A DNA stretch of 64,000 nucleotides from Planctomycetota bacterium (GTDB lineage: Bacteria > Planctomycetota > SZUA-567 > H5-PLA8), in NCBI GenBank assembly GCA_038227875.1, contig JBBRPR010000001.1:32001-96000 (forward strand), written 5' to 3'. The position numbers and the translations under genes were made by a program. Every line of letters starts with the position of its first letter. Position 1 is the stretch's first letter. Positions 2-53,088 of the stretch are shown in pieces. The notes beneath the pieces were generated by a model. The model had not been told where the DNA came from and made no database searches. It saw only the letters and a list, made by a program, of their open reading frames with translations.

Positions 2-3000
2 GCCGACCGCGCGGAAGTGATCGCGCCGTACTCCGGACATTCGACGCCCGAACAGTGGACGGCGCTGATCGTCAAAAATCCCGCGCCGTTCAAGGCAACG
101 CCGCAGATCCGCGCGCTGAACCTGCTGGTGCAAGCGCCGACGCCGGAGCTCTACAAGAAGCTTGGTGAAGTGCTGCAGGGCGTGCCGTCGTACTCCGCGG
201 CGATCATCAACACCATCAACGCCGGCAATCTGGACATGGACGCAGCCAGCGCCTACATCCTCAAGAATGAAACGTGGCACGCGAACAATCCCAACGAAAT
301 CATGAGCTGGCTGCGCAACAATGTCTGGGGAACGATCAATTCGTTCGCGCAGGTGGCGAAAAAGCCCTTCGCTGGCGATTACAACGACCGGTTCTATTCG
401 CGGGTCGGCGCGGAACTGGTTGCGTCGACGCCCGTGGCGTATTCGGACCTGGGACAGACCGGCGAATACCTGCGCGTTTCGTGGTATTACTCCGGCAAGG
501 ACGCCAACGATCATTCCAAATTCGCGGAGGTGATTCGCAGCCTCGATTGGGTGCCGTATTCCGCGCAGCAGCGGCAGCAGGTCTTCACGCCGGCGCTGAA
601 CGAATTCCGGCGCTGGTCGGAAGAAGTGAAGAAGGACGCCAAGCGCCTGGCCGAAAATAAGGCCGTGATGGATGAGATCGAAAAAGCGCTGACGCTGGCG
701 ATGTCGGATCACAAAGGCGATCCGAAAAAGGCGCCCAATGCGCTGTGCAAGGCGCTCAGCGGCTTGGGGCTGGCGATTCAGGCCAAGGACAAGGAAGCGT
801 ACACGGTTGCGGCGCGCGAACTGTACGCGCAGGTCAAGGAGTACAACGCGGCGCACACGCCGTGGGGCAAGTACATCTACGACACCATTCTCGAGAACCG
901 CCTGGAGCAATTCGACACGTGGGATTTTCAGTGCGAAGTGCTCGCCGATCAACTCACGCGCTCCGACACGCCCGCGGCTCAGGAACGGATTGTCGAGTGG
1001 AGCCACCGCGTCACCCACCGCCCGAACTGGCAGTGGTGGAACTGGAACTGGTGGCAGGCGACGCAGGTGGACGCCGACAAGGCGCGCAAGCTGCGGGGCA
1101 TCGTGGAGAAGACGATTCTCGAGCAGGCCGACAAGGGGACTCTCTGGACGGAGCTCGTGACGCTCTATCGCTCGACGCGCCAGGGACCCGGCTGGAACGA
1201 CGCCGACAGCGGACACACGGTGCTGGAAAAACTGATCACGACGAAGACGTTCTTCAAATCGCATTACCGCGAAGAGCCGTGGGTGAAATCGGACACCTCG
1301 TCGTATCCATGGCTGATCCAGCGCGAGTTTCAGAAGCAGGACGCGAAGTTTCCGGTCGGCACGTACTTCGACGACATGTACGTGGAGGAAGAGACCGCCG
1401 CGAAGTACATGGATTTTTCGTACTTCAATTTCGGCCGCGACGAGAAGAAGCGCATCCGCAACATGGCGGCGGGATTCTTCAAGGATTTCGAACGACTGCC
1501 ATTCGGGTATTCAGACAAGGCGCCCCAGTACACGCAGGATGAATTCTGGCGCTGGCACTACCAGATCCTGGAAGCCGAGCCGGCGTTGCGCGACGCGTTT
1601 ATTGCTCAAGAGGAAACGTACTACGGAAAGTCGCGCTACGACGACTTCGCCGCGGGACGCGGTTATTTCAGCCACCAGTGGCGCATCGAAAACCCCGAGA
1701 CGCGGAAGAAGTTCTTCGAACGGCTGGGGCAGTTCGTGGAACACATCAAGGATTCCGGAGACCGCGGCGGATTCTCGCCGGAGCGCACAATGGCCGGTCA
1801 ACTTCCGCCCATGCACGCGCTCTCACAGATGGGCGGGAAATTTTCCAAGGAAGAGCTGGATGCGCTGACGGGCCTCTTTCCGCAGTGCGTGCCGCTTCAC
1901 TGGTACGGCGGCTACAGCTACGAATGGTTGCTCACCGCCACGATTGAAGGACTGCTCGAGAAAAAGCGCGAAAACGAATTGATGCCGATCGCCGGGCATC
2001 TCTGGAAGATCTCGCTGGACACCGGCAACACCGACTACCAGCGCAAGATGGCGCAGTATACGGTGAAATTCTCAGAAGAGAAACATACTGAGTTGGCGAC
2101 GGTGTTCGCGATCGCGGGGCTGGAAGTGATGGGCGAAAAACTTCCTGAAGACGCGCGCGCGTCGCTGCAGGCGATCCGCAGCAAGGGGCTCGGTGCGCTG
2201 GGACACGAGATTCCCGTCGCGGCCAACGACCCACGCTACCCGATCTTTTTCGCGCAGAGCGAATTCCAGAATGGCAAGCAACCCAGCGCGTGGGAGACGT
2301 ACCAGGCCAATCCGGCGCTGGTGACCTCGTCGTACAAGGAACTGGATATTGGCTTCCTGCTCTGGCTGCTGGCGCGCAACACCGATGCCGGGCAGTTCGA
2401 CCGCGCCGATGCACTGGCTCACGCTTTAATTCCGTGGGTGGAAGGCAGTCCCGCCGCGTTTGAACCCGATGCGCGCGGCCGGTTGATGCTCTATTACGGC
2501 GACATTTCCTACGCACGAAAAAATTTCCCACGCGCGCGCAAGGATTACGAACGCGTCACGGCAAGCAAGGAATATGAAGGCACGCTGGCGCAGCGCGAAG
2601 CGGAACTGCGCATCGCGGAAGTGGATCGCGCCGTGAAGGACTACGATGCGGCGCTGCAGCGCCTGGACCGCCTGGCCAAGCGCCACGACGTGTACCTCGA
2701 GACGGAAGCCAACTACCAGATGGCACTGGTGAAGTTCGACCAGGCCGACTACGAGGGCGCACAGCGCTACCTGGAAGAAGTTTTCGCGCACACGCCCGAA
2801 CATGAAAAGGGCCGCCTGCTCGAAGCCGATGTGAATTTGAAGCGCGAGCAGCCTGACAAAGCGACAAACATCAAGGGCGGTATGACGCAGGAACAGAAGC
2901 TGCTGATTCCCGGCACGCCGCTACGCGTCAACTTGAAGGATACGAATCTTTCGGTGGTCGGAAATTCATCGCGCATCGAAGTGCGCGTCTGGACGGATTC

Positions 3001-6000
3001 CGGCGACAGCGAAACCATCAATCTGCTGCCGACAGACACGAAAACACAATTCGAAGGCGAAATCACCACCACGATGGGTCCGGTGAAGAAAGACGACCAC
3101 CAGCTGCAGGTGCTGGGCGGCGACAAAGTTCACTACGATTACTCGGAAAAGTTCAAAGAGGAACACAAGATCGCGCGCAACGAACCAGTAACATTGGAAG
3201 TGGCCTCGAACTCGCAGTTGATCGTCTCGTCGGGAAAAATTCTGACCAAGGAAGAGCAGCAGGACCTGGAGGCCGAGCGCCAGATCCGGCAGAGCCTGAA
3301 AGGTGACGACGCGCAGACGACGCTGAGCACCACGCGCGCCGAGGACCAGATCAAGCCGGGCAATAAGATCAACGTGCGTGTGATCGACTTCGACCGCAAC
3401 ATCAGCGCGGAAAAAGACACTGTGATGGTACGCGCGACGGCTTCCAGCGGCGACGTGATCGAAGCGTTCCCTCTGGTGGAGACCGATACGCACTCTGGAA
3501 TTTTTGAGGGTGAAATACCAACGGCGCCCGGCCATCCAATGGCGACAGCCTCGGATTCAGGAGAAGGCCGCGAACCGAACAACGTGATCTCCAGCGTGGA
3601 CCGTCCGGCGTGGATCGCGCAGTCCGACGGCCGCCGCCCGAAGATCTTCACCGTGAATTTAAACGACAACGTGAAGATGCAGAGCTTGAATATTCTTGCC
3701 GACGTTCCCGACCGCAAACTGAAGGCGTTTGCCGTCGAGACGTCGATGAACGGCACCGACTATTCGGCAGTCGGTATCTGGCCCGATCAACTCGCGCCGT
3801 GGGACGGCGCGCTGACGTGCGAGCTGATGAAGTGTCCGGAGGGTCCGGCGCGGTTGCAGGACGCGGTCTCGTACGCCGATGGCGGGTACCAGCGGACCGG
3901 CGCGCCGAAAGTGACACTGCCGATGAAGACCTTCGGCATCAGCCTCGACAATCAGCTCAACGGCAACGCCGACAAGATCAAACTGACGTGGCAGGAATCA
4001 ACTGCGTGGTACCTGCTGCACATGCACGGCGCGTTCTATCTTCCCAAGCGTGAACTGAAAACGTTCACGCTCGACAACAAGAAAAAGTTCAACGAGATGC
4101 GCTACTTCTTCGCTGTCGACGGTGTGGCCGCGCCGGCGAACAACGCACTGGAGATCAAGCGCGAACTGGCGAAGGGCGTGCACCGCGTTGACGTGTATGT
4201 CTGGTCGCACCGCCACACAGGCGTGACGTTCGACGTGCAGACGACGTCCTCGGAGGACGGGACGCCGGCGGTCTGCAGCGCCGAAATGTTTGACCCGGTC
4301 AAGCAGCCGGCGATCAAGGAAGCCTGCTGGGTCGAACCGGCGCAGGTGAAAGCCGGCGCGGAGAACACATCGTTCGACGTCAGCTTCGCCAAGGGCGCGC
4401 ACGCGCGGTTTTTGCGGCTGGTCATCGCCGACTACGAAAAGGACGCGCCGGGCCTCCATAAGCTCAAGCTGGTCGACACTGAAAATCAGACCGTGCTGCC
4501 GACGAAGGACGACTTCATGGCGCTGCGCGAAAACAAGACGCTGGAAATTCTACCCGGCGACAAGATCACCGTGACGTACCGAGATCCTGTTGTGGTGACG
4601 AAGGGACAGGAAGTGCAGGAACGCTTCATGACCGCGACGTTCTACAATGCGAAGCTCAGCGCTTGCTTGGTGGAATATGTGCCGACTGCGCGCGGAGACA
4701 AACTTCCGAAGTACATCCCGCTGCGCCGCTTCATTCCCGGCGACCCGGGCGATCCCAATCACACCGGCGTCAACAATGTCTTCGTCTTCATCAACGATCC
4801 CGACGAAGACACAACTGATGCGCCCGACAAGATCAAGTTCAGGGCCGTGGCCGGAAAATCGACGCTGGAATTGGAAGCGACGGAGACCGAACCGCATTCG
4901 GGCGTGTTCGTCGGCAACATTTATCCCGTTACCGGCGCGCCCAAGCGGCCCAACGAGATCACCGTCGGTCCCGATGACGACATCACCATTCATTACATGG
5001 ATAAAGAAAACACCGATCCGGGTGTGCCGTGGGACCGGATGTTCGTGGTCGAGCAGTCGTTCTCGCAGGCTCCGAAGCTCGCAATATTCGATGTCGACCC
5101 TCAGGCGTTGACGCCGGAAGAACTGAAAGTCGCCAAAGCTGCCGACGAGATGAATCGCCGCGTGACGGAATACGTGCCGATAACCTCGAAGCTCGTCGCC
5201 CACCGACCCACGCAGAAGGCCGACGACAAAACTCCGCTGCCGCCCTCGAACTTGATCTCCGATGGTCCGCTGGTGGTGGAACTCACGTATCCAGCGCTGG
5301 CGCGGTCGCCGATCAGCGAAGCGACGATTTACGTTCAATCCGCCTCGGGCCGCGAGAAGGCAGGCAAGCCGATTGAGCCCGGCAGCTTCGACGAGACCGT
5401 TCCAGGCACGTTGAAACTCACCCGGCGCCCGGAGGCTATCCACTGGCGCATCGAGCCGCCCGCGGGCTACCAGGAAGTTTTTATCCGCGATCAGCGCAGC
5501 AACGACGAACTGCTCAGCGACGGCAAGTTCATCTTTCACATCCCGCTGGAACTGGCGGAAGTCCCGGCCGAATCGCTGGTGGGCTACGTTCAGCCCGACA
5601 ACATCAATGCCAAACCGCTGACGCTCTCGGTGCGCGGCAATGACTCCGTGTTCGTCGGCTTCAAATACACGGAGGCCGGAGCCACGAAGTGGTCCGTGCA
5701 GGAAGCGCACCTCAAGAGCGAGCCGCGCTTCCACGTGATGAACAACCGCTACCAGGAAGTGCTCAGCGGAGCCCACGTCGGCGACAACCTGTACCTTCGC
5801 GTCATTCACAAAACGATGGACACCTCCAACGCACGCAACTCCGTGACGGTGCAGTTCGAAACCAGGACCGGGAAGAAGCAGAGCGTGACCCTGGCCGAGA
5901 CGCTCAATCACAGCGGCGTGTTCAAAGGCACGATCAAGCTGGCGTACGTGGGCGATAAGGAAGGCGCGCAGGAGGCCGGTACGTTGCCGGTCGATTACGG

Positions 6001-7033
6001 CGACAGCATCACCGCGACGTACGTCGTTGAAGGCGCGAAGGAACCGCTGACCAGCGTGCTGGAAGTGTACAAAGGTTCCGACGGCAAAGTCATTCCGTTC
6101 ACGCGTCGCTTTAAGGACATGAGCCTGGCGGTGCAGACTCAGTTCACGATTGCCGAATCGTACTTTGAACTGGCCAAGCAGCACCGGGGACTCAACCAGC
6201 CGGAGCAGGCGCGGCTGGAAATGGCGGAAGGCAAGAAGTTGCTCGAAGAAGCGATTCGCGATTTCCCGCGCGACGATTCAAAAGTCGAAGCCGAATACCT
6301 GCTGGCGGAATTGTCGCTCGAAGTCGCCGACGACGCGGCCGACGAGGACGCGAAGAAAAAGAGTTACACCGAGGCGCAGATACGCTTCAGTGAAATTGTG
6401 TCCGCGTACCCCACCAGCACGCGCGCGCCGCTGGCGCAGTTCAAGAAGGCGCTGATTTACGAAAAGCTGGGGATGATGGACCAAGCCTGCGAAGAGTATG
6501 TGAAACTTTCCTGCCGTTACCCGCACGACGACCTGGTCTGCGACACCATTGCGCGCCTGGGTGAGTACTTCCGCAAGAAGGCTGAAGATTTCGAAAAGCA
6601 GTCGACTGCCGAGCAGGATGCGGTGAAGGCCGAGAAGCTCCACCGGCAGGCTAAGGACACGTACGTCACTGCCGGCGAAGTGTTTTCCCGTCTGAGCGTG
6701 CGCAACCCGGCGCATCGCCTGGCGCTGAAGACCATGCTGCTCTCCGGGCATTGCTACCGGTTGTCGGAACACTGGGACAAGGCGATCGCGCAGTACAAGC
6801 TGGTGATCGACAACACCAATAAGGACCGTGAGTTGATTCCGGCGGCGATGTATTACACCGGCACTTGCTACATGGCGAAGCGCGATGAAAAGTCGGACGA
6901 ATCCGCGTACCACGCTTTCCACAATCTGATCTACGAGTACGCCGGCACCGATTGGGTCAAGAAGGCCAAGGGCCTGATGTACGAAGAGCGAATGATAGAA
7001 GCGGAAAAGAGAGACCAGAAGAACAGTCACTAG
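2..7033 (+). CDS. Giant TPR / Ig-like-repeat protein with discoidin- and PA14-like inserts (5' truncated, >2340 aa)
   Basis: Frame is open from position 2 (GCC GAC CGC GCG GAA GTG), so the gene starts left of the window. TPR-like helices lie at about nt 2350-2850 (e.g. ANYQMALVKFDQADYEGAQRYLEEV) and nt 6140-7000 (AQFKKALIYEKLG, AMYYTGTCYM). Recurrent ET-x2-HSG-[IV]-F-x-G-x-I beta repeats lie between. Confidence 0.85.
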   Translation, partial: ADRAEVIAPYSGHSTPEQWTALIVKNPAPFKATPQIRALNLLVQAPTPELYKKLGEVLQGVPSYSAAIINTINAGNLDMDAASAYILKNETWHANNPNEIMSWLRNNVWGTINSFAQVAKKPFAGDYNDRFYSRVGAELVASTPVAYSDLGQTGEYLRVSWYYSGKDANDHSKFAEVIRSLDWVPYSAQQRQQVFTPALNEFRRWSEEVKKDAKRLAENKAVMDEIEKALTLAMSDHKGDPKKAPNALCKALSGLGLAIQAKDKEAYTVAARELYAQVKEYNAAHTPWGKYIYDTILENRLEQFDTWDFQCEVLADQLTRSDTPAAQERIVEWSHRVTHRPNWQWWNWNWWQATQVDADKARKLRGIVEKTILEQADKGTLWTELVTLYRSTRQGPGWNDADSGHTVLEKLITTKTFFKSHYREEPWVKSDTSSYPWLIQREFQKQDAKFPVGTYFDDMYVEEETAAKYMDFSYFNFGRDEKKRIRNMAAGFFKDFERLPFGYSDKAPQYTQDEFWRWHYQILEAEPALRDAFIAQEETYYGKSRYDDFAAGRGYFSHQWRIENPETRKKFFERLGQFVEHIKDSGDRGGFSPERTMAGQLPPMHALSQMGGKFSKEELDALTGLFPQCVPLHWYGGYSYEWLLTATIEGLLEKKRENELMPIAGHLWKISLDTGNTDYQRKMAQYTVKFSEEKHTELATVFAIAGLEVMGEKLPEDARASLQAIRSKGLGALGHEIPVAANDPRYPIFFAQSEFQNGKQPSAWETYQANPALVTSSYKELDIGFLLWLLARNTDAGQFDRADALAHALIPWVEGSPAAFEPDARGRLMLYYGDISYARKNFPRARKDYERVTASKEYEGTLAQREAELRIAEVDRAVKDYDAALQRLDRLAKRHDVYLETEANYQMALVKFDQADYEGAQRYLEEVFAHTPEHEKGRLLEADVNLKREQPDKATNIKGGMTQEQKLLIPGTPLRVNLKDTNLSVVGNSSRIEVRVWTDSGDSETINLLPTDTKTQFEGEITTTMGPVKKDDHQLQVLGGDKVHYDYSEKFKEEHKIARNEPVTLEVASNSQLIVSSGKILTKEEQQDLEAERQIRQSLKGDDAQTTLSTTRAEDQIKPGNKINVRVIDFDRNISAEKDTVMVRATASSGDVIEAFPLVETDTHSGIFEGEIPTAPGHPMATASDSGEGREPNNVISSVDRPAWIAQSDGRRPKIFTVNLNDNVKMQSLNILADVPDRKLKAFAVETSMNGTDYSAVGIWPDQLAPWDGALTCELMKCPEGPARLQDAVSYADGGYQRTGAPKVTLPMKTFGISLDNQLNGNADKIKLTWQESTAWYLLHMHGAFYLPKRELKTFTLDNKKKFNEMRYFFAVDGVAAPANNALEIKRELAKGVHRVDVYVWSHRHTGVTFDVQTTSSEDGTPAVCSAEMFDPVKQPAIKEACWVEPAQVKAGAENTSFDVSFAKGAHARFLRLVIADYEKDAPGLHKLKLVDTENQTVLPTKDDFMALRENKTLEILPGDKITVTYRDPVVVTKGQEVQERFMTATFYNAKLSACLVEYVPTARGDKLPKYIPLRRFIPGDPGDPNHTGVNNVFVFINDPDEDTTDAPDKIKFRAVAGKSTLELEATETEPHSGVFVGNIYPVTGAPKRPNEITVGPDDDITIHYMDKENTDPGVPWDRMFVVEQSFSQAPKLAIFDVDPQALTPEELKVAKAADEMNRRVTEYVPITSKLVAHRPTQKADDKTPLPPSNLISDGPLVVELTYPALARSPISEATIYVQSASGREKAGKPIEPGSFDETVPGTLKLTRRPEAIHWRIEPPAGYQEVFIRDQRSNDELLSDGKFIFHIPLELAEVPAESLVGYVQPDNINAKPLTLSVRGNDSVFVGFKYTEAGATKWSVQEAHLKSEPRFHVMNNRYQEVLSGAHVGDNLYLRVIHKTMDTSNARNSVTVQFETRTGKKQSVTLAETLNHSGVFKGTIKLAYVGDKEGAQEAGTLPVDYGDSITATYVVEGAKEPLTSVLEVYKGSDGKVIPFTRRFKDMSLAVQTQFTIAESYFELAKQHRGLNQPEQARLEMAEGKKLLEEAIRDFPRDDSKVEAEYLLAELSLEVADDAADEDAKKKSYTEAQIRFSEIVSAYPTSTRAPLAQFKKALIYEKLGMMDQACEEYVKLSCRYPHDDLVCDTIARLGEYFRKKAEDFEKQSTAEQDAVKAEKLHRQAKDTYVTAGEVFSRLSVRNPAHRLALKTMLLSGHCYRLSEHWDKAIAQYKLVIDNTNKDRELIPAAMYYTGTCYMAKRDEKSDESAYHAFHNLIYEYAGTDWVKKAKGLMYEERMIEAEKRDQKNSH

Positions 7034-7056
7034 AGCAGGGATTTGAGGAGGACGGC

Positions 7057-8034
7057 ATGGACACACTGTGGCCCATGGTTGTGGGTGCGGGAACTGTCGA
7101 GAAAATCATTCTCGTGCTGCTGGGCGTGCTCTCGGTGGTGCTGTGGAGCACGGTGATTCTGAAAGTTCCAGAGATCCTCGCCGCGAAGCGCAACGGCGCA
7201 CGCTTTCTCGAGAAATTCCGCGAAGCCAGCGACTTTGGCGAAGTGAAGGCGCTGGAATTTCAGGGCGACTGCATCCACCACGAAGTCTTCAAGTCGGCGC
7301 TCGCGGCGTTGAACGGCAAGCCGCCGTCGAAGCAGCCGGTCGGAACAAGCGACCCGGAGCGCTTCAGGATCGCGCCCGACAGTTCCACCGAAGAGATCGT
7401 GTTGCTGAGCATGCAGCACACCAGCGCGGCGTATCTGCTTCACCTTCAGCGCGGGATCAGCATGCTGGCGACGATCGGCAGCACGACGCCGTTCATCGGG
7501 TTGTTCGGCACGGTGATCGGCATCATGAGCACCTTCCACGCGCTCGGCGCGGTGAAATCGCCGAGCATGCAGGTCGTGGCGCCGGGCATCTCCGGCGCGC
7601 TGATCGCCACGGCGGCCGGACTGGCCGTCGCGATTCCTGCGGTGATCGTGTGCAACTGGTTCTCGTCGCAGATCGGAATGATTCAGGAAAGCGTCGACGC
7701 GTTCATTGAAAAGATGATGGCACTGGTCCGCGCCAACTGCGAAGCAAAGGCGGAAGCCGCGGAGGCAAAAGCTCCCGCGGTCCGCGAAACGCCGGCCGCG
7801 CCGAAGGTACTCAAGCCGCACAGTGATGTCGCCGCGCCGAAAGTGCGCACCGACGTTCCGGTGGCGGTTCCACGGCGCGTCACCGCGCCACGGCCCGACG
7901 CGGCACTGGCGGTGGAGAAGGACGTCAGCGACACGCCGAGCACCAAACGCCCGGGCGCAAAAATGTCAGACGATCTGTTGAGCGAAAAATCGCACGTGGA
8001 ATTGGCTGTCGGTAAAAGGATGCCCAAAACATGA
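7057..8034 (+). CDS. MotA/TolQ/ExbB proton channel protein with Pro/Ala-rich C-terminal tail
   Basis: GAGGAG RBS before ATG 7057. N-terminal TM, then family motifs LATIGSTTPFIGLFGTVIGIM and VAPGISGALIATAAGLAVAIPA. Confidence 0.93.
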   Translation: MDTLWPMVVGAGTVEKIILVLLGVLSVVLWSTVILKVPEILAAKRNGARFLEKFREASDFGEVKALEFQGDCIHHEVFKSALAALNGKPPSKQPVGTSDPERFRIAPDSSTEEIVLLSMQHTSAAYLLHLQRGISMLATIGSTTPFIGLFGTVIGIMSTFHALGAVKSPSMQVVAPGISGALIATAAGLAVAIPAVIVCNWFSSQIGMIQESVDAFIEKMMALVRANCEAKAEAAEAKAPAVRETPAAPKVLKPHSDVAAPKVRTDVPVAVPRRVTAPRPDAALAVEKDVSDTPSTKRPGAKMSDDLLSEKSHVELAVGKRMPKT

Positions 8035-8462
8035 GCATGAGCGTCAGCGCAGGCCCGGCGAAAAAGGGCAAGAAGAAATTCCACGCACCCACGCCTGAAA
8101 TCAACGTGACGCCGCTGGTCGACGTCATGCTCGTGCTGCTGATCATCTTCATGATCACCGTTCAAGCAGCGAAGGATTCGATTCCTGTCGAACTTCCCGA
8201 TGCGGTGGGAACTCCGGAGGCGGGCGATAAGACGCCGCTGGAAGTCACGCTCGATGCGCGCGGCGATATTCATATCGGGAACCAGACGTTCGGCCTGGAA
8301 GTCGTCGAACAGGAATTGCCACGCCTGCTGAAAGGCCACGAAAAACAGGGCGTGACGCTCAGCGCCCACAAGAAGATGCCGTACGAATCAGTGGTAAAAG
8401 TGGTCTCGGCCATTCGCGAAGCTGGTGTGGAGACGGTCAACCTGGCGGTGGAAGGTCAGTGA
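8031..8462 (+). CDS. ExbD/TolR biopolymer transport protein
   Basis: EINVTPLVDVMLVLLIIFMIT with the conserved TM Asp, and C-terminal YESVVKVVSAIREAGVETVNLAVE. ATGA overlap with the exbB-like gene. Confidence 0.95.
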   Translation: MSMSVSAGPAKKGKKKFHAPTPEINVTPLVDVMLVLLIIFMITVQAAKDSIPVELPDAVGTPEAGDKTPLEVTLDARGDIHIGNQTFGLEVVEQELPRLLKGHEKQGVTLSAHKKMPYESVVKVVSAIREAGVETVNLAVEGQ

Positions 8463-8854: not shown

Positions 8855-8864
8855 GGGCGTCACT

Positions 8865-10499: not shown

Positions 10500-10528
10500 T
10501 GAACGCCGCATTTCCCGAGGGCAGTGCC

Positions 10529-16915: not shown

Positions 16916-16967
16916 ACCCTGGTTCAAATTTGTACCAGATTCGGGGAGCGTGGCAGTGAATGTACGA

Positions 16968-44597: not shown

Positions 44598-46457
44598 TCA
44601 CTTCACCACATTCAGATTGCTGAAGTAATCCTGGATCAACTGCTGGTCGTCGGCGCGCACGCTGTCGTCGGACTGCGGCGCGTTGAGGAGCTTCGCCGCC
44701 ACATTGGCATTGGGCTCGCTGTCAGCCGCCACGCGGGCCGGCAGTTCGCGCGCGGCGAGCGTGACTTTCTTCAGATTGTCGTACAAGCCCGGCGACCACG
44801 AATCGCGGTAGACGATGTCCTTGAACGTTTCCTCCTCGGTCACGACCGCGACGCGAAAGGCCGGCGTGCGCGCGGTGTGCGGGCCTTTCTTCGGTTCGAG
44901 ATCGTACGCGTCTTCGACTTCCGCCCAGAAGACGATGCGGTCGCCGAGATGCGCGCCGGTTTCCGAAAGGCGCAGCATGCTCAGCTGCTGAATTTCCGTC
45001 TGCGGCAGCGCGAAGGTCCGCACTTTCGTGTCCTGGGCTTTCTCCTGATTGGATTCCAGGCTTTCGATGCGGTAATGCACGGTCACCTTTGCCACGCCGC
45101 AGTCGTCTGACGCGCGAACCACCACGCCCAGGCTGGACAGTGTCTGTTCGAGCACGTGGGGTTCGTCGCTGGCGGATTTATGCGGCAGGCCGATCAGCGT
45201 TACTTTCGGCGCTTCGTCTTTGACCACGCTGAGTTCGTAGAGATGCGCGGCGTCTTCGTTGGTATAGCCGTATTCGTCGGTCAGAGTCAGCGTGTAGGTG
45301 GCATGGATGGTCTGTCCCTTCTCATCGGCGAGCCACTGCTCGTTGTCGAGCTGCATGATCGCGCGCGCGAACTGGCCGTTGCCGATCAGGTCGTCGGGTT
45401 TGTCTGTGTACGAGCGCTTCATCACAGCGGATTTCAGTTTCTTGTTCGCTTCAATCGTCAGCACCACGGAGCTTCCGAAGAGCTTGCTTTTCAAGTTGCC
45501 GTCGCTGCGCGGTTCGATCATGCGCGCGCGGTGGACGTACGCCGGCAGATCGGTTTCGACGCGCAGGTTGACGATGCGCGGCCGTTCGGTGACCAGCACC
45601 TTCCGGTGCTCGCTGGTGAAACGCCCCGAGGCGAAATAGCAGTCGAACGTTTTGCCGACGGCCTTGTTGAGCTGCTCCGCGCGCCCCGCGCCATCAACGC
45701 TCACTTTCGTCGACGCGTACTGTGTTTCGCCTTCGGCCTTGCTGAAAAAGTACATCTCGTCGCTGTGAAATCCGGTCTCGGCGGCGTGCAGGGTGATGTC
45801 GCTGCCGATCAGGTACGCGGGCTTGTCGAGCGGATCGATGGTGATCTTCGCGCCGCCGGCCGCAGCGATGACGTCGTTCATTTCGCTCCACGCCGTGGAG
45901 AAACTTCCGAGCGCGCCGCGAATGCCCGCCGCGTCAAACGCGAGTGCCGCGGCCCAGAACGCCAGCGTCCCGGCCGCGAGGAACATCTGGCGCCGCGAGG
46001 GTCGGCGATCGACGGCGGCGCAGAAATCGTCATTCAGCGTGGAGCGTTGCGCCTGAATCACGACGGCCCGAACGAGAATCGGATCGAAGCGCGGCTTGTC
46101 GCGCTGCAGATCGGCGTAGATGTCCAACGCGCTGACGACCTTCGACTGGTAATCCGGGTGCTTCTTTTCCACGAGCAGCGCCGCGCGGGAGAGACTGTAG
46201 CGCTCGAAGAGCGGCCGCACGACCTGGCGCCACGCCAGCCAAAGGAATCCAATCACCAGCGCCGGAAGGATCGGTGCGCGCATGTAATACGGCAGCCCGA
46301 TGGAGCTCTGCACGATCAGCACCGCCAGCAGCGGCAGCGCGAGGCACCAGATCAGGCGGCAAGAGCCTTCCAGCACGGCGCACGAACGCTGCAGCGCGGC
46401 GACGCGGGCTACGCGCGCGCAGAGGGTTTCGTAGGCGGATCGTGCTTCGTCGGACAT
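44598..46457 (-). CDS. DUF4175-like membrane protein of MoxR/DUF58/vWA operons
   Basis: Three TMs around AALLVEKKHP..VVSAL, then beta-rich domains with LTDEYGYTN, DEAPKVTL, RASDDCGV and GDRIVFWAEVED. Confidence 0.7.
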   Translation of the reverse strand: MSDEARSAYETLCARVARVAALQRSCAVLEGSCRLIWCLALPLLAVLIVQSSIGLPYYMRAPILPALVIGFLWLAWRQVVRPLFERYSLSRAALLVEKKHPDYQSKVVSALDIYADLQRDKPRFDPILVRAVVIQAQRSTLNDDFCAAVDRRPSRRQMFLAAGTLAFWAAALAFDAAGIRGALGSFSTAWSEMNDVIAAAGGAKITIDPLDKPAYLIGSDITLHAAETGFHSDEMYFFSKAEGETQYASTKVSVDGAGRAEQLNKAVGKTFDCYFASGRFTSEHRKVLVTERPRIVNLRVETDLPAYVHRARMIEPRSDGNLKSKLFGSSVVLTIEANKKLKSAVMKRSYTDKPDDLIGNGQFARAIMQLDNEQWLADEKGQTIHATYTLTLTDEYGYTNEDAAHLYELSVVKDEAPKVTLIGLPHKSASDEPHVLEQTLSSLGVVVRASDDCGVAKVTVHYRIESLESNQEKAQDTKVRTFALPQTEIQQLSMLRLSETGAHLGDRIVFWAEVEDAYDLEPKKGPHTARTPAFRVAVVTEEETFKDIVYRDSWSPGLYDNLKKVTLAARELPARVAADSEPNANVAAKLLNAPQSDDSVRADDQQLIQDYFSNLNVVK

Positions 46458-48776
46458 TTAAGCCAGCCCCCGCCGCTTGCGCATGAGCCACTCGGAGCTC
46501 AGCAAGACCACCAGTAGAATCGCCAGCCCCGGCGCATGCCAGAGATCCACCGTCAGCTGCGTGACGCGCGCGGACGAGGGACTATCCGGCAGCTTGAAAG
46601 CTGCTGCCTGTGCGAGCGTGCCGCTGTTGCCGCCGGTTGCTTTCGCCAGCTCCGCCAGTGCTTGCGTATCGGTCTTGATGTGGAGAAATTCCGAACGCGA
46701 CGGCGCGACGTAGACGGTCGCTTCCAGCACCTTCGGATCTTCGCCTTGCATCGAGATGATCGCTTTGATGTGGTGCGGGCCGGCCTTCACCGGCACAAAC
46801 GTAAACGGATAGCGGCCGGGGAGCGCGATGTCGGAATTCGTCTGCCCGTTGATCGTCTCGCCGCCGGGCTGATCGATGATGAAGCGCGTGCTGGCCGTCG
46901 TATCGGGATTGCCATCCTTGTCCTTGATCGTGACCGAGAACGTCGCCGGTTTGGAAACTTCCAGCACGGGATCTTCGCAGACCAGCGAGCCGATGCGTTT
47001 GTTGGTGCGCGGATCACCCGCGGACCAGCGCGCGAGCTGGCCCCAGTAGCGCTGGTGGTAATCGTTCTCGGTGGTGCGGGCCAGGCGCCAGTGCCACGTG
47101 CCGTCCAGGGCGCTGGAGAAAACGCGGCCGTGGCCGTACTGCCATGCCGCGGCGATCGGCCGCGGACCGGTGGCGGTTTTCAACGTGGGATGAACCAGCA
47201 GGACCGTCGCGCCGGGCTTGACCACGCGGAACGCGTTGCCGCCTTCCACCCACGGCAGCTTGGCCCACGCTTCGACGTTCTTTGCGGGGTCCTGTTCCAG
47301 TTGCATTGCCGGATGCATGATGCCTTGCGTTGTAGCCTGAACATTGAAACGATTGACGAGCTGAAGCTTCTTGTCGCGCGTGACATTGAGCGGGACCATG
47401 CGCGCCAGCGGGGTGTCTTCGTAATTTCCCGCCGCGTACACCTTGAATCCGCCAATGGTCACCAGCCCGCCGCCGTGGCGCGTGACGAACGATTCGAGGA
47501 TATCGAAGCGGTTGGACTGTTCGAAGATCTTGCGCTCGACGTCGCCGAGAATCAGCACGTCGAAGTAATCCAGCTCGTCGGCGACGCTCGGGAAACCGTC
47601 CTTGGGACGCGCGAGGACCGGCTTGCCGTCCGGGCGAGTGGGCTTGCCTTGGAAAAACCACTCGTCGCCGGGCAGGCGCACCAGCCCGCTGAAGTCGATC
47701 ACCGGATCGGATTCCAGCGCCTGCTTGGCGAATTTGTATTCCCAGCTCGGTTCGCCTTCGACGAAGAGCACCTTGACCTTGTCGCTGCGGACGTCGAGGT
47801 TGAAATCGATGGTATTGTTGGCTGACGTGATCTCACCGTCGACGGGAAGCACGCGCAGGCTGTAGTGCTGAAAACCCGCCTCCGTCGTTGCGAATTCAAT
47901 GTGAGCGACGGCTCCCTCGTCACCGGGCTTGACGGCCACGGTCGCGCTGCCGGCTTCCTTTTCTCCGGCGTCGTTGATCGCGAAGAGCTTCACCGAGACG
48001 TCGTGGGCAATGCCCAGCGACTGCAACTGTGCCGAAACCACCGCGTGGTCGTGAAGGTAAACATACGGCGGAACGCCGGCGCTGTGGAGCACGACATCGC
48101 GGACGTCGGTCTCATCGCCGGCGCTGAGCGTGCTGACGGGCACGGGAAGTTCGTTCGACGCTGCAGCGAGTTCGCGCCCGCCCAGCTCCACGCCGTCGGA
48201 AATCAGCAGCACCTGGTCGAGCGGCTGCTCGCTGCGCTGCGTGGTCCGGCGGACCAGCATCTTGGCCAGATCCTGCGGCGCGGCGGCGGATTCGGTGGCG
48301 GGGGTCAGCGGCTGGCCGGACGTGGTCGCGACGGTCACGGCGTAATTCTGACGGAGCTGTTCGAGCAGTCCGCGCGCATAGAGCGTGCTTTCTGTGCGCG
48401 CCAGGCGCGTCTCTGTTCCGGCGACCGGCAGCGACATGCTCGGCGAGTCGTCGACCAGTACGAGCAACTGCGGCAGCTGGGTATGCGTGACCTGGATCGC
48501 GCAAACTGCTCCGCTGGTCATCACCAGCAGCAGCAGCAGCGCGAGAAAGCGCGTCGCCGAAAGTGTGACCCGTGCGCGCCAGGTCAGGCCTTCTTGCGTG
48601 CGGAAATAACAGACTGAGGCGAGGCCCAGTGCGACGAGCGAGCCGCAGAACAGCAGCTCGTGGCCGTAAGGCGCGAACGACCACTGCGCGGCATGAACAC
48701 GCGCGGCCACGAGGTCGAAGCGACCTTCCGCGAGGAGCGCGAATCGCGCGAGGAGGTTCAGCAGCGTCTGCATCAC
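46458..48776 (-). CDS. Membrane-anchored vWA + Ig-like + class I glutamine amidotransferase-like protein
   Basis: MIDAS-like LVDDSPSM and LLISDG, KVLFVEGEPSWEYKF, FDVLILGDV..GGGLVTIGG, C-terminal EWLMRKRRGL. Confidence 0.85.
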   Translation of the reverse strand: MMQTLLNLLARFALLAEGRFDLVAARVHAAQWSFAPYGHELLFCGSLVALGLASVCYFRTQEGLTWRARVTLSATRFLALLLLLVMTSGAVCAIQVTHTQLPQLLVLVDDSPSMSLPVAGTETRLARTESTLYARGLLEQLRQNYAVTVATTSGQPLTPATESAAAPQDLAKMLVRRTTQRSEQPLDQVLLISDGVELGGRELAAASNELPVPVSTLSAGDETDVRDVVLHSAGVPPYVYLHDHAVVSAQLQSLGIAHDVSVKLFAINDAGEKEAGSATVAVKPGDEGAVAHIEFATTEAGFQHYSLRVLPVDGEITSANNTIDFNLDVRSDKVKVLFVEGEPSWEYKFAKQALESDPVIDFSGLVRLPGDEWFFQGKPTRPDGKPVLARPKDGFPSVADELDYFDVLILGDVERKIFEQSNRFDILESFVTRHGGGLVTIGGFKVYAAGNYEDTPLARMVPLNVTRDKKLQLVNRFNVQATTQGIMHPAMQLEQDPAKNVEAWAKLPWVEGGNAFRVVKPGATVLLVHPTLKTATGPRPIAAAWQYGHGRVFSSALDGTWHWRLARTTENDYHQRYWGQLARWSAGDPRTNKRIGSLVCEDPVLEVSKPATFSVTIKDKDGNPDTTASTRFIIDQPGGETINGQTNSDIALPGRYPFTFVPVKAGPHHIKAIISMQGEDPKVLEATVYVAPSRSEFLHIKTDTQALAELAKATGGNSGTLAQAAAFKLPDSPSSARVTQLTVDLWHAPGLAILLVVLLSSEWLMRKRRGLA

Positions 48777-51124
48777 GCGGCGGCCTCCGTGGCGCTCATC
48801 CAGGCCACCAGACTTTCCGCGCCGAGGACCAGGAGCGCCGCCAATAGCGTCCAGCGCCAGAGATCGCGCCCGGTGTGGAGCGCTTCAACGATCGCGGCGC
48901 TGTTGTCGGTCAACCGGTAAGAGGTGAGTTGCGTGCTGGGCGGCAGGTAGTTCTTCAGGTCGTCGACGGGAATCGCTTCGAGATCGCTTTCGCGCGGGCT
49001 GTGATTGACGGAGATGGGGATCATGTCCGTGTCGAGCGCCGGTTCGGTGAGCATGCCTTCGATGGCGCCGGGTTGCATGCTCAAGAAATAATGCCCGTCG
49101 CGCGAGGTGGAGGGCAGCACGACTGCGCGGCTGTTCTGGAGCCACGGCAGCGGTTCGTATTGCGGCTTGGTTCCCGGCGCGGAGGCCAGGCGGAAGAGCG
49201 CGGGCGTGCCGCTGGCGAGTTCGGTGGGAATGATCGTCGCGGCGCCTTCACCGACAACGCGATCGGGCAGCAGCGTGGACGGGCGGCCATCGGCGCCGAG
49301 GTAGCGGACAAGGTTGCGCGTCATCAGCACGAACGCGGGACGCAGCGGCCAGTCGCTTTCAGTGATGTGCGCGCCAGTGGCGGCGAGAATCACACGGCCT
49401 TTGCCGACGGCACCTTCGACCAGCGCGGGCGTGCCATCGGAAAAACGTGCGAGAACTTTGGCGTCGGCGTTGGGCTGCAGCACAAAATGGAGACTGGTGC
49501 TGAGGCTGTGGATGCCCGCGCCGGCGTGTTCGCGCACGCCGCTGAGCGCCGTGGCGCGTTCGTCGATGGATTTGAGGAAGACGAAATCCTTGGTCTTCTT
49601 TTCGAGCAGCTGCGCCGGGAGAAATCCCCACGCGTTGTATTCTTCGGCCGTGGAGTTGGCGCCGGGAAACACCAGCACGCCTTTGCCGTCGGCGGCGAAC
49701 TGGCGGATCTTCTCACGCAGGTCCTTGTCGATGGTCTGGACACCGGCGAGGACGACGACGTTCCATTCGGTCAGGCGGCGCTTGGTGAATTCGGTCAGGT
49801 CCACTTCTTTGGCGTCAGCGGCGGCCGGATTGCTGCTCGAGCGCGAACCCAGCGCGTTGACCAGGTAGAACGCTTCGGAATCGGCGCCGGTGTGGCCGGC
49901 TTCGCCATTGACGCAGAGCGTCTGCACGGGGAAGCGCACGCCGATCTGGAAATGCCACGTGTCGTCGTACGGGTAGGTGTCGGACGGCGACGAGAGTTCT
50001 GCGGTGCAGAGCAGGCTGCGTTCGCGGCTTAACACCTGGATCGGGAACGCCAGCGAAAGGGAGCTCTTCGCCGGAATCACGGGTACCTTGATTTCGCTGG
50101 GCTTGTTGCCTTCACCGGAGTGGACGGTGAGCTTGCCTTCATCGGAGGCCTGCGCGCTGTAATTGCGGATCGTGGCGACGCCGGTGATGGTCTGACCGAA
50201 ATCCGCTTCGCGGACGGGGACCGTGCAGCTCTCAAGGCCCAGGTTTGCTCCGGAGGACGCTTGCGGCTCGATCGGCACGGCAACCAGCGAGACACCGGCC
50301 AGCTCATCGAGTTTGTCGCCTTCCCATTCGGATTTTTGAAGGTCGGAGATGAGGATGATTTTCTTGTCGCCGTCCTGCGAGAGGCGGAGCAGCTTCGCCG
50401 CGTGTGCGAGGGCCCGCTTGACGTCGCCGGGTTGGGCAGCGACGTCGGCTTGCGCCAGCAGAGACCGCAAGCGCGTCTGGTCGTAACCGAAATCCTGAAC
50501 GCGGCTGGAATCGTATCCGCGCACGCCGACTTTTGTTCCCGCGGGAATTTTGTTCAGCGCCGTCTCCAATTGCGCGGCGTCGCGGGTGAGTCCCGGCACG
50601 CTTTGCTTCGCGGACGCTTTCTCCGACAGCCAGAGTCCCGTGGGTTCACCGGCGCGGGCGTTCAGTTCGTTGCGGAGCTGCGCGGCGTCGGTGAAGTACG
50701 TCGGGTCGTCGGTGGGCGCGGTGAAGAGCAGTTCGACGCGGTCGGCGGGGCCGAGGTGGTCGACGGCAGTCTGCGCGATCGACTTGGCGCGTTCGAAGAG
50801 CGTCTTGCCGTCGCGCAGGCGCTGCATTGATGGGGAGTTGTCGAGGACGATCACGATCGAGGCGCGTTCTTCGCCCAGTGTGCCGTGGCTGACGAACGGT
50901 CGCGCGAGGCCGAGCATCAAGGCCAGCAATGCGAGCATGCGCAGGCAGAGCAGCACCTTGTCGATCAAGCGGCGCTGAATTGTGTTGTTCTTCACCGTCT
51001 TGTCGAAGAATTGCAGCGTGGTGAAGGCGCGTTCCGGATAGCGCTGACGGTGGATCAGATGGATCACGACGGGAATCGAGACCGCTGCCAATCCGTAGAG
51101 AAACGCCGCGCTGAGAAAGCTCAT
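48773..51124 (-). CDS. BatA-domain / vWA membrane protein
   Basis: BatA N-terminus MSFLSAAFLYGLAAVSIPVVIHLI, vWA IVLDNSPSM and ILISDLQ, C-terminal TM DLWRWTLLAALLVLGAE. Confidence 0.88.
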   Translation of the reverse strand: MSFLSAAFLYGLAAVSIPVVIHLIHRQRYPERAFTTLQFFDKTVKNNTIQRRLIDKVLLCLRMLALLALMLGLARPFVSHGTLGEERASIVIVLDNSPSMQRLRDGKTLFERAKSIAQTAVDHLGPADRVELLFTAPTDDPTYFTDAAQLRNELNARAGEPTGLWLSEKASAKQSVPGLTRDAAQLETALNKIPAGTKVGVRGYDSSRVQDFGYDQTRLRSLLAQADVAAQPGDVKRALAHAAKLLRLSQDGDKKIILISDLQKSEWEGDKLDELAGVSLVAVPIEPQASSGANLGLESCTVPVREADFGQTITGVATIRNYSAQASDEGKLTVHSGEGNKPSEIKVPVIPAKSSLSLAFPIQVLSRERSLLCTAELSSPSDTYPYDDTWHFQIGVRFPVQTLCVNGEAGHTGADSEAFYLVNALGSRSSSNPAAADAKEVDLTEFTKRRLTEWNVVVLAGVQTIDKDLREKIRQFAADGKGVLVFPGANSTAEEYNAWGFLPAQLLEKKTKDFVFLKSIDERATALSGVREHAGAGIHSLSTSLHFVLQPNADAKVLARFSDGTPALVEGAVGKGRVILAATGAHITESDWPLRPAFVLMTRNLVRYLGADGRPSTLLPDRVVGEGAATIIPTELASGTPALFRLASAPGTKPQYEPLPWLQNSRAVVLPSTSRDGHYFLSMQPGAIEGMLTEPALDTDMIPISVNHSPRESDLEAIPVDDLKNYLPPSTQLTSYRLTDNSAAIVEALHTGRDLWRWTLLAALLVLGAESLVAWMSATEAAA

Positions 51125-51126: not shown

Positions 51127-52026
51127 TTAGCGGGTCCTCCGCGCGCGGAAGGCGAAGTAATTGGAGAGGACCGTTTCAATGGGCTGCGACGTGCGGATGA
51201 GATGGTAGTCGACGTTCGATTTCAAACAGCCTTCGCGCAAGCTGGTGCAGTAGGCGCGGACGCGGTCCTGATAAGTCGCGCGGAACGTGGCGGGATCGAC
51301 GGCCAGCCGCGAGGAGGTCTCCAGTTCGCGGAAGTTGGCGAGTTCGGCGTAAGGGAGATTGAGTTCGGCGTCGTCGAGCAGGTGAAAGACGATGACGTCG
51401 TGTTTCTTGTGCTGGAAATGCTGGAGCGCGGTCAGGATTTTGTCGGTGTCGTCGAGGAGGTCGGAAATCAGGATGATCATCCCACGGGTCTTGATCGTCT
51501 CGGCGAGATGATGGCAGACGGCGGGAATGTTCGTCGCTGGTCCGGGCTGCAACTGGCCGAGGATGTGGAGCATCATGCGCAGGTGCTGGCGGCTGCCGCG
51601 CGGCGGAAGATAGTGGCGGACTTTCGAATCGAACGTAACCAGCCCGGCCATGTCGTTCTGGTGGATCAGCGTGTAGGCGAGCGTCGCGGCGAGGTACGAG
51701 CCGTATTCGATCTTCTTCAGTTTGCCTTCGCCGAAGTCCATCGACTTGGAACCGTCGAGGACGATCGTGGCTTTGAGCTGGCTCTCCATTTCGAAGCGCT
51801 TGACGTAGTACTTGTCCTTGCGCGCCCAGACGCGCCAGTCGACGGTGCGCAGGTCGTCGCCGGCGGCGTATTCGCGGTGGTCGACGAATTCGACGCTGTA
51901 GCCGAAGTCGGGGCTCTTGTGGTAGCCGACGAAAGTACCCTTCACGAGTTTCTTGGCGGCGATCTCCAGGTTGGGGAGCTTCGCCAGCAGCGCGGGATCG
52001 AGGAAGCGTGAACCGACGATGTTCAT
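51127..52026 (-). CDS. DUF58 domain protein (vWA-like MoxR partner)
   Basis: G.HKSP..G.SVEFVDHREY..GDDLRTVDWRVWAR..YYVKRFE, LDGSKSM, ILISDL. Confidence 0.95.
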   Translation of the reverse strand: MNIVGSRFLDPALLAKLPNLEIAAKKLVKGTFVGYHKSPDFGYSVEFVDHREYAAGDDLRTVDWRVWARKDKYYVKRFEMESQLKATIVLDGSKSMDFGEGKLKKIEYGSYLAATLAYTLIHQNDMAGLVTFDSKVRHYLPPRGSRQHLRMMLHILGQLQPGPATNIPAVCHHLAETIKTRGMIILISDLLDDTDKILTALQHFQHKKHDVIVFHLLDDAELNLPYAELANFRELETSSRLAVDPATFRATYQDRVRAYCTSLREGCLKSNVDYHLIRTSQPIETVLSNYFAFRARRTR

Positions 52027-52077
52027 GGGCAGACCTGTGAGAAACGGACGCGTGAATACACGGTCGACGATGAACGG

Positions 52078-53088
52078 TTACTCTTTGGGTTCCGGCACGC
52101 TTTCGATCAGTTCCTTGATAATCTGGACGGTGTCGTTGCCTTCGGCTTCGGCAGCGAAGTTGGGGACGATGCGGTGGCGCAGCACGCTGACGGCGCACGA
52201 ACGGATGTCCTGCGTTGAGACGTGGAAGCTGCCGCGCAGAATCGCGCGGGCCTTGCCGCCGAGGACCAGGTTCTGGACAGCGCGCGGACCGGCGCCCCAC
52301 TGCAGCCACTTCTTGGCGGTCTTGGAGCCGTCGGGTTCGCCGGGGCGCGTGGCGCGGACGAGTTTCGTGGCGTAGGCCACGACCGGATCGGCGATGGGAA
52401 CTTTGCGGACGAGCATCTGGTACTTCACGATGTCGTTGCCGTTCATCACGACTTTCAGATCGGGCTTGTGATCGACGGTGGTCTGGATGCCGATCTGGAT
52501 TTCATCCTTCTCTTCGGGGTAGCCGAGATAAATGTTGAACATGAAGCGATCCTGCTGCGCTTCGGGAAGCGGATAGGTGCCTTCCTGTTCAATCGGATTC
52601 TGCGTGGCCAGGACTAGGAACGGTTCTTCGAGCTTGTAGGTCTTGTTGCCGATCGTGACTTCCTTTTCCTGCATGGCCTGAAGCAACGCAGCTTGAGTTT
52701 TCGGCGGCGTGCGGTTGATCTCGTCGGCGAGGACCATATTGGCGAAGAGCGGGCCTTGGATGAATTTCAGGGAGCGCTGCCGCGTGGCGGCGTCTTCTTC
52801 GATCACGTCGGTGCCGGTGATGTCGGAGGGCATCAGGTCGGGCGTGAACTGGATGCGCTTGAATTTCAGGTCGAGCACTTTGGCGATGGTCGAGACCAGC
52901 AGCGTCTTCGCCAGTCCGGGCACGCCGACGAGCAGCGCGTGACCGCGGCTGAAGAGGCAGGTCAGGACGTCATCGACCACGACCTGCTGGCCGACGATGA
53001 CCTTGCGGACTTCGCCAATGATCGCCTCGCGAGCCTTCTTCAAGGCTTCGACTGACTGCAGTGCTTCGTCGGTGGAGTCTTGCGCCAT
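52078..53088 (-). CDS. moxR: MoxR family AAA+ ATPase
   Basis: Walker A GVPGLAKT, RIQFTPDLMPSDITG, LADEINRTPPKTQAALLQAMQE, ATQNPIEQEGTYPLPEAQQDRF, LRHRI. Confidence 0.97.
   Translation of the reverse strand: MAQDSTDEALQSVEALKKAREAIIGEVRKVIVGQQVVVDDVLTCLFSRGHALLVGVPGLAKTLLVSTIAKVLDLKFKRIQFTPDLMPSDITGTDVIEEDAATRQRSLKFIQGPLFANMVLADEINRTPPKTQAALLQAMQEKEVTIGNKTYKLEEPFLVLATQNPIEQEGTYPLPEAQQDRFMFNIYLGYPEEKDEIQIGIQTTVDHKPDLKVVMNGNDIVKYQMLVRKVPIADPVVAYATKLVRATRPGEPDGSKTAKKWLQWGAGPRAVQNLVLGGKARAILRGSFHVSTQDIRSCAVSVLRHRIVPNFAAEAEGNDTVQIIKELIESVPEPKE

Follow-up and report, generated by a model that had tools for sequence, protein, structure and literature searches.

The stretch of DNA described here, called the window below, consists of 64,000 nucleotides from a Planctomycetota bacterium (G000:C1:32001-96000; the G000 assembly measures 9.34 Mb in 176 contigs and is 88% complete). 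It holds two conserved gene modules. The left one joins an ExbB-ExbD proton motor to a TonB-like DUF4159 protein, here called P0001, and to a giant TPR protein. The right one is an operon that starts with a MoxR ATPase gene. With a probability of roughly 70%, these are two independent modules that are neighbours only in this organism and in those most closely related to it. The reading starts from what was observed: which genes are present, how they are conserved and ordered (synteny), their folds and motifs, and the separate distribution of the two units.

An earlier note on this DNA took the whole for one system of about 42 kb. The conserved ExbBD/DUF4159/TPR module in that proposal stands, and the placing of the MoxR operon in the same system does not. 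The single system fails since the orthologs of the two operons occur independently, a result that had been named beforehand as speaking against it.

The genes concerned are these, from left to right, with lengths in amino acids (aa):

1..7033, + strand: C-terminal 2343 of the 2677 aa of the secreted TPR giant; the same frame runs on upstream, where there is a signal peptide (TPR_6, TPR_2 and YfiO by Pfam)
7054..8034, + strand: ExbB/TolQ-type proton-channel protein with an Ala/Pro-rich C-terminal tail (PF01618, E 5.3e-31)
8031..8462, + strand: ExbD/TolR-type protein, single copy, with a 4-base overlap with ExbB (PF02472, E 1.5e-30)
8459..8854, + strand: 131-aa His-helix protein, with one transmembrane (TM) helix that contains His39 (translation, TM scan)
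8865..10499, + strand: P0001, 544-aa DUF4159 protein (PF13709, E 9e-31, 107.4 bits)
10496..16915, + strand: secreted giant of 2139 aa; GATase1-like segment, propeller blades, and at the C-terminus a DUF7402/fucolectin-like domain
16887..18059, + strand: SGNH/GDSL hydrolase, last + strand gene of the left block (PF13472, E 3.2e-22)
25386..28185, + strand: ABC ATPase, FtsX/MacB-type permease and a 248-aa protein (Pfam)
28238..31069, - strand: 943-aa secreted PQQ/BamB-like beta-propeller, last gene of the right operon (PF13360, E 2.5e-40; orthologs in G004:C4, G013:C58 and G013:C2)
31050..38039, - strand: giant of 2329 aa, as measured on its longest open reading frame (ORF); it probably starts at GTG 37922, which directly precedes the signal peptide
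37912..39372, - strand: secreted HEAT-repeat protein (PF13646, E 6.7e-36; colinear orthologs)
39342..43688, - strand: 1448-aa secreted protein with a C-terminal NPCBM/NEW2 domain (PF08305, E 5.4e-21; orthologs)
43685..44566, - strand: P0002, 293-aa secreted DUF4159 protein (PF13709, E 1.4e-32, 113.3 bits; signal peptide)
44598..51124, - strand: three inner-membrane proteins of 619, 772 and 783 aa (Pfam, TM scan; colinear orthologs)
51127..53088, - strand: MoxR AAA+ ATPase and DUF58 (vWA-like) protein, first genes of the right operon (PF07726, AAA_3, 2e-62; PF01882, 7.5e-51)

The domain calls made earlier for ExbB, ExbD, both DUF4159 proteins, MoxR, DUF58 and BatA are borne out by Pfam, where the gathering cut-off for DUF4159 is 25.9 bits. 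The closely spaced gene junctions listed in the earlier note (8031/8034, 8459/8462, 31050/31069, 39342/39345, 43685/43688, 46457/46458 and 48773/48776) are all in the ORF list. One more, at 37912/37922, is there provided that the in-frame GTG ahead of the signal peptide is the true start of the 2329-aa gene. A look for RNA evidence over 7000-16900 of the window listed none.

The independence of the two units is seen most directly by following the right operon through genomes that carry the left module. The marker for this is the 619-aa protein, with a match threshold of E<=1e-15 in the left-bearing genomes. The search covered 50 other left-bearing genomes of the Planctomycetes-Verrucomicrobia-Chlamydiae (PVC) group, out of 71 distinct genomes with loci. 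No marker match was found in 45 of these, three gave weak matches (24-27% identity), and two have clear orthologs. Those two genomes, like G240, carry the left module and the right operon on separate contigs.

The same is seen in individual genomes. G005 (6 contigs) and G003 contain the left module, and orthologs of the 2329-aa giant, the NPCBM protein and P0002 are absent there. In G004 (8 contigs) the left module sits in the middle of the 3.26-Mb contig C1, and the right operon is on C4. Downstream of P0001 relatives, MoxR-type genes occur at 3 of the 36 loci with at least 8 kb of downstream sequence, plus one shorter locus. Their identity of 53-56% is at paralog level; true orthologs reach 79-83%.

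It had been argued that the operons are linked because each has a DUF4159 gene and a giant. The genes are indeed there. As a link they do not serve, given that DUF4159 and MoxR are multi-copy and that giants occur in other MoxR operons. The genome has about 21 high-scoring MoxR (AAA_3) genes and 11 DUF4159 matches, four of which are within 9 kb of a MoxR gene, so sharing these features does not tie the operons together. More distant giants of the same family are also found elsewhere in the genome, such as one on C34 with a MoxR gene 11 kb away, and some of them are in other MoxR operons. The P0001 head and the DUF4159 domain of P0002 are 23% identical. Simple arithmetic gives a chance of about 0.18 that one of some 21 MoxR genes lies within 45 kb of a given point in 9.34 Mb. 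Among the DUF4159 matches are ORFs with two such domains in tandem, on C34, C47 and C4, and one match falls within a 2337-aa ORF on C9.

The left module was traced by a scan for relatives of P0001, using one genome per species. This found 170 loci, of which the best 80 were kept for neighbourhood counts. These 80 span Planctomycetota, Phycisphaerae, Lentisphaerae/Victivallales, Verrucomicrobiota and Kiritimatiellia. Counts were restricted to loci with enough flanking sequence, which means at least 3 kb or at least 8 kb upstream, or at least 8 kb downstream. ExbB or ExbD is upstream of the P0001 relative in 59 of 61 loci with at least 3 kb there, and a TPR-giant relative in 53 of 55 with at least 8 kb. 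These counts across PVC confirm the earlier suggestion that ExbB-ExbD, the TonB-like DUF4159 protein and the giant TPR protein form a real set, and a widely conserved one.

Closer relatives agree. The family sample contains 17 genomes (G000 and 16 others), and full-length relatives of P0001 are found in 7 of the 16. Gene order is kept in all six family genomes that were fetched: the 588-aa and 764-aa TPR proteins, the TPR giant, ExbB, ExbD (1-2 copies), a small His-helix protein and the P0001 ortholog.

Clustering of ORFs yields the usual order in relatives: TPR giant, a 142-aa protein (c7), ExbB, two ExbD, a His-helix protein of about 160 aa, a five-helix DUF4159 protein, and c3, a membrane protein of about 420 aa. 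ORF calling was crude in high-GC loci, where antisense ORFs displaced some genes, so the counts for the His-helix protein, c3 and c7 are lower bounds. With that proviso, small His-helix proteins occupy the same position in at least 35 of 73 related loci, and c3 is downstream in 47 of the 71 with room for it. A DUF6288/HEAT/PDZ protein (c8) is present in 16 loci.

Most relatives have two ExbD genes. The copy in the window lacks the second ExbD as well as c7, c3 and c8, and tblastn found no relatives of the latter three anywhere in the genome. The window copy is a reduced variant of the module: its ExbD is single and the three accessory genes are missing.

A profile built from an alignment of 49 P0001 ortholog sequences found 294 cluster representatives at E<=1e-30 among 1.84 billion proteins, shorter single-helix forms included. 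Within its own phylum the left marker is rare: it was found in 11 of the 301 Planctomycetota genomes that make up the phylum sample. This means that the module is not a housekeeping system there, unlike Tol-Pal.

The single-helix DUF4159 proteins among the relatives are about 350-420 aa long and have a plain TonB-like layout. One of them (L127:6068-7144) precedes ExbB-ExbD and follows a 1784-aa TPR/F5-F8-type-C protein. In G002, a 1788-aa ORF (L033:11640-17006) overlaps the end of the P0001 ortholog and lies between it and the ortholog of the 2139-aa giant; it is dissimilar to all window proteins.

The left operon does not start inside the window. Reading the upstream DNA shows that it begins about 5 kb before it: two secreted TPR proteins of 588 and 764 aa are encoded to the left of position 1, and the gene of the 2677-aa TPR giant starts 1000 bases before the window. 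This giant had been described as a TPR/Ig scaffold. Pfam finds the TPR repeats, and no Ig domain.

The ExbB protein scores 3.5e-43 as NCBIfam tolQ and 2.1e-36 as exbB, both below the equivalog cut-offs. ExbD has Asp31 inside a predicted TM helix at 26-44. In the 131-aa protein the helix, with motif AxxxH, is followed by a tail rich in Pro, Lys and Ala, and there is no globular head. It has no match in Pfam or NCBIfam, and from its sequence it looks like a TonB N-terminus. The genes of P0001 and the 2139-aa giant overlap at 10496/10499. The gene after that giant encodes the SGNH hydrolase and not a DUF4159 protein; a homolog of the hydrolase is near the left module in G004 and G006.

Several observations weigh against the independence of the two modules. 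All 6 right-marker genomes among the 301 also carry the left marker, which is in only 11. In the family, the 5 right-bearing genomes are all among the 8 left-bearing of 17, for which the hypergeometric probability is about 0.009, uncorrected; relatedness inflates this, as 5 of the 6 right-bearing genomes are from one family. In G013 the left module shares its contig with a second right-operon copy, 43 kb away, and with a distant MoxR operon, 10 kb away. The 2139-aa giant has relatives that adjoin the left module in G000, G002, G003, G004, L123 and L127, and the right operon in G013:C58 and L122. As for the left module itself, the docking of P0001 onto the motor, described below, is one suggested by a motif and by topology.

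The same observations speak for a looser coupling. In this alternative the right operon is an accessory that works only beside the left module, perhaps by way of the giant paralogs or the GATase1-like domains, and the left module also works alone. Every genome with the right marker bears the left module too, which holds for 6 of 6 in the phylum sample and for 5 of 5 in the family. Either unit can have a relative of the 2139-aa giant beside it, and the one in L122 is directly before a MoxR gene that is 83% identical. GATase1-like modules recur in both units. However, the lineages behind this number about two, namely family f1 and G240, whose marker is just 30% identical. Both units share a contig only in G000 and G013, and at least five relatives of the 2139-aa giant with full 10-kb flanks are near neither unit. 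Coupling of this kind is judged unlikely.

It is likewise doubtful, although worth stating, that the MoxR operon is a lineage-specific add-on which docks onto the DUF4159/ExbBD module. The AAA+/vWA pair would then assemble a periplasmic giant GATase1-like scaffold, the proton motor would pull, and the 2139-aa giant would be the adaptor. Such an adaptor would explain why its relatives are found beside either unit.

A very improbable alternative for the left module is that ExbB-ExbD are the ordinary Ton motor for the canonical TonB and receptors of this genome, with the DUF4159 protein and TPR giants as mere neighbours. The whole genome does contain one TonB_C match (contig C5) and four Plug matches (other contigs), and ExbB and ExbD score as generic tolQ/exbB and tolR/exbD. 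But TonB_C and Plug have no match in this part of C1, and there are 7 MotA_ExbB matches in the genome, so other motors are available. ExbB/ExbD are moreover paired with P0001-type genes in those 59 of 61 loci, from several phyla, and the SxxxH helix of P0001 is conserved. The Pfam scan agrees with the earlier note that no TonB-dependent receptor, TolB or Pal is recognisable in the window: no protein there matches TonB_C (PF03544), Plug, TolB or Pal. The loci of the module are also without a canonical set of TonB and receptor, or of TolAB-Pal, around ExbBD. TolB_N has 0 matches in the genome, which is 88% complete; Pal was not sought genome-wide.

Hardly credible any longer is one obligate 42-kb machine, in which MoxR-vWA assembles a giant-scaffold complex and ExbBD drives it through DUF4159: the operons do converge, with 11 kb between them, a DUF4159 gene and a giant of a single family are found in both, and G013 also has the two on one contig, but the left occurs without the right in G005, G003 and 45 of 50 other genomes, contigs differ for the two in G004, G311, G321 and G240, DUF4159 (11) and MoxR (about 21) are multi-copy in the genome, and the two DUF4159 domains are only 23% identical.

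The two giants are, as was claimed, paralogs. They are homologous but distant, at 24% identity over 528 alignment columns (E 7e-18). The detectable parts of both are a GATase1-like segment (GH42M, DUF4350, ABC_transp_aux), PQQ-like propeller blades and a DUF7402/fucolectin-like domain, all with weak matches. In the ESM Atlas, the matches of the 2139-aa giant are all under 0.9.

These proteins had been labelled pseudo-glycosidases, which could not be confirmed from weak matches to GH42M and other GATase1-like families. Neither giant has a catalytic glycoside hydrolase (GH) domain by Pfam, NCBIfam, PDB profile search or ESM Atlas, and the only GH-related match is to the non-catalytic GH42M domain (E 0.0015). 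Ahead of the GATase1-like segment, at about 570-810, is a strongly conserved region that may be a degenerate barrel.

The 2139-aa giant has relatives downstream of P0001 relatives at 2 of the 36 loci with at least 8 kb of downstream sequence, and this giant is thus not part of the PVC-wide left module. A metagenome scan with the giant alone found nothing. Repeated with an alignment, it gave 19 loci. Upstream in 4 of 5 loci with full flanks that adjoin neither unit (L124, L126, L129 and L132) is a transglutaminase-like (DUF553) protein of 526-596 aa.

P0001 is a candidate for the protein that would transmit force in the left module. In its AlphaFold2 model, which has a mean predicted local distance difference test (pLDDT) score of 79.8, five TM helices are followed by a disordered linker at 229-318, rich in Lys and Pro, and by a globular head at about 330-544 that is modelled with confidence. 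The fifth helix has the motif S196xxxH200, with Ser in 44 and His in 45 of the 49 aligned sequences. Basic residues ahead of this helix are conserved, as is Pro207 after it (48 of 49). Model and alignment thus uphold the earlier description of the 544-aa protein as TonB-like: an SxxxH helix, a disordered Lys/Pro linker, and a head that the odd number of helices and the basic N-terminus would place in the periplasm. Most P0001 orthologs end helix five in a conserved Gly-Cys (GGC, RGC or AGC), which the window protein and its two nearest relatives lack.

According to PMC12204202, TonB and TolA bind their motors at a site called the SHLS motif. SxxxH is the first half of this motif, and TonB-like docking of P0001 onto the motor is proposed on that ground.

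The head closely matches PDB 4i66, with a Foldseek E of 4e-9, a VIA Z of 22.0, a root-mean-square deviation of 1.9 over 186 residues and a profile E of 1.7e-8. The next VIA matches, at Z 7-9, are class I glutamine-amidotransferase-like chains (ThuA-like, the GH42 middle domain and the IFT52 N-domain). There is no vWA chain among the Foldseek and VIA matches listed for the head. The nucleophile Cys position is not conserved in the P0001 alignment consensus; the head is therefore taken to be a binding module and not an enzyme.

The following mechanism is proposed for the left module. The ExbB-ExbD motor in the inner membrane would be engaged by the fifth TM helix of P0001, through its TonB/TolA-type SxxxH. 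Force would pass along the disordered Lys/Pro linker of about 100 residues to the DUF4159 head in the periplasm. This head, of GATase1/ThuA-like fold, probably grips a partner in the periplasm or outer envelope, the likeliest partners being the secreted TPR proteins of 588, 764 and 2677 aa, whose three genes lie immediately upstream. The headless 131-aa His-helix protein is a second candidate for binding the motor. Transmission of force, partnership with the TPR proteins and any role in the cell are what this arrangement suggests. Envelope tethering or remodelling, or the capture of macromolecules, would be guesses at that role.

One comparison is with the Ton system. The motor families match (ExbB PF01618; ExbD PF02472 with its TM Asp), and P0001 would share with TonB an N-in TM helix, SxxxH after basic residues, and a periplasmic linker rich in Pro and Lys. 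Unlike TonB, P0001 has four extra TM helices, and its conserved partners are secreted TPR giants.

Tol-Pal is similar in other ways. In NCBIfam the scores of ExbB and ExbD are slightly higher for tolQ and tolR than for exbB and exbD, and the TPR proteins match TPR_6 and YfiO, the repeat type of CpoB and BamD. Unlike Tol-Pal, the left locus has no Pal and no TolA domain III.

The domain of the P0001 head is also found in Hoch_4089 of Haliangium ochraceum, the protein of PDB 4i66. That is a stand-alone chain of 200 residues, unlike P0001, and was deposited as uncharacterised; it provides no functional clue. A literature search for DUF4159 matched only the Pfam database paper.

It was also suspected that MUL1 of Akkermansia (amuc_0544) might be a module of the left type. 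This was not confirmed: the papers give mucin transport for mul1A and a Sus-like MUL1, without naming ExbB, TonB or TPR.

The gliding machinery of Myxococcus, Agl-Glt, couples a TolQR-type motor to TPR and periplasmic scaffold proteins. Homologs of Glt were not seen here, and no search for Glt was made. Coupling of the Agl-Glt type (TolQR-type motor, TPR/periplasmic scaffolds) is also suggested in PMC12204202.

That paper, from 2025, gives the closest description: a protein tethered in the inner membrane, whose His helix is of the SHLS type and whose globular head, beyond a disordered linker, is not that of TonB. The head is there called a vWA fold, the His is near residue 35 and a stator box is at about 55-60. 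The same paper gives a PVC locus with the order TPR gene, tolQ-like gene, tolR-like gene(s), transducer, which is the order around P0001 relatives. P0001 also has a TM helix with a conserved His, followed by a disordered linker.

There are differences with the published description. The head here is DUF4159 with GATase1-like matches, whereas the paper says vWA. The His helix of P0001 is the fifth of five, and a helix with His at about 35 belongs to a separate, small and headless protein. The short single-helix DUF4159 forms may be those described in print. Going by the description and not by a comparison of sequences, the published locus and the left module are likely identical. The c3 protein was also considered as the published vWA transducer and rejected: its folded model gave only weak, RecA/P-loop-like Foldseek matches.

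The right operon has ten genes, all on the - strand: MoxR, DUF58, the 783-aa, 772-aa and 619-aa proteins, P0002, NPCBM, HEAT, the 2329-aa giant and the PQQ propeller. The 783-aa protein has the N-terminal double TM of BatA (PF07584 6.8e-16; TIGR02226 2.5e-18), a VWA_2 domain (PF13519) and a ThuA-like segment. The 772-aa membrane protein matches GATase1_like, and the 619-aa one weakly DUF4175.

The operon is colinear from MoxR to propeller in G004:C4 and G013:C2, and from BatA to propeller in G013:C58. Orthologs of MoxR and DUF58 are 74-81% identical in G004:C4 and G013:C2. Those of P0002 are 59-81% identical in G013, G002 and G004, and there are none in G005 and G003. Full-length orthologs of the 2329-aa giant, 46-64% identical, are in G002, G004, G006 and G013, the last of which has two copies. 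The ABC/FtsX/248-aa trio adjoins right-operon orthologs in G004:C4 and G013:C58, so the conserved right unit may consist of 13 genes, trio included. The copy on G013:C58 lacks MoxR and DUF58; the trio is directly after BatA there, and an ortholog of the 2139-aa giant is 4.7 kb beyond.

Operons of MoxR, DUF58 and BatA/BatB, of the "aerotolerance" type, are known from Bacteroides, Leptospira and Borrelia. The right operon is alike in having MoxR AAA_3, DUF58 and BatA (double TM and vWA) in the same order. It is unlike them in its seven further conserved genes (GATase1_like, 619-aa, DUF4159, NPCBM, HEAT, giant and PQQ propeller). Pfam finds no BatD-type match in the operon. The marker is in 6 of the 301 Planctomycetota genomes, 5 of them from one family. 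The operon is best read as an elaborated, lineage-restricted form of the common MoxR-DUF58-BatA cassette.

As for its mechanism, a cytoplasmic AAA+ ATPase and its vWA-like partner would act on the three inner-membrane proteins, with their vWA and GATase1-like domains; genes for five exported proteins come after these. The action would be that of a chaperone.

Some neighbouring genes complete the picture. Between the left block and the trio are two tandem paralogs on the - strand, at 18114-20168 and 20257-22296, of 684 and 679 aa. They are 58% identical, have no signal peptide and weakly match GHL15/GH31 TIM barrels; in G004 and G006 a homolog of 64% identity is found some 6 kb away from the P0001 ortholog. 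Beyond the right operon, a 221-aa protein with a transposase-type helix-turn-helix (55885-56550, -) separates it from signalling genes. These are a 1329-aa GAF/GGDEF/Ser/Thr kinase/TPR protein (56814-60803, +) and an MshEN and PilZ protein (60841-61614, -), together a cyclic di-GMP signalling pair. On G000:C1, from 12.9 to 5.7 kb before the window, there is a second MacB-type set: an ABC ATPase, a 1104-aa FtsX protein, a 597-aa protein and a 468-aa PQQ propeller. It adjoins the left module, and is not conserved there in the family genomes fetched.

A very similar locus has already been noted in passing in print (PMC12204202), so the window copy in itself adds little that is new. For this window, the gain is that the left module is now separated from a neighbouring MoxR operon that had wrongly been merged with it. 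As a reduced variant, with one ExbD and without c7, c3 and c8, the window copy also helps define the core of the module.

Ton and Tol are the two well-studied routes by which energy is carried from the inner membrane to the outer envelope in diderm bacteria. A third output head, DUF4159, on a motor of the Ton/Tol kind, found PVC-wide and with giant TPR partners, would point to an energised envelope process that has not been studied so far, in bacteria with unusual envelopes and macromolecule uptake.

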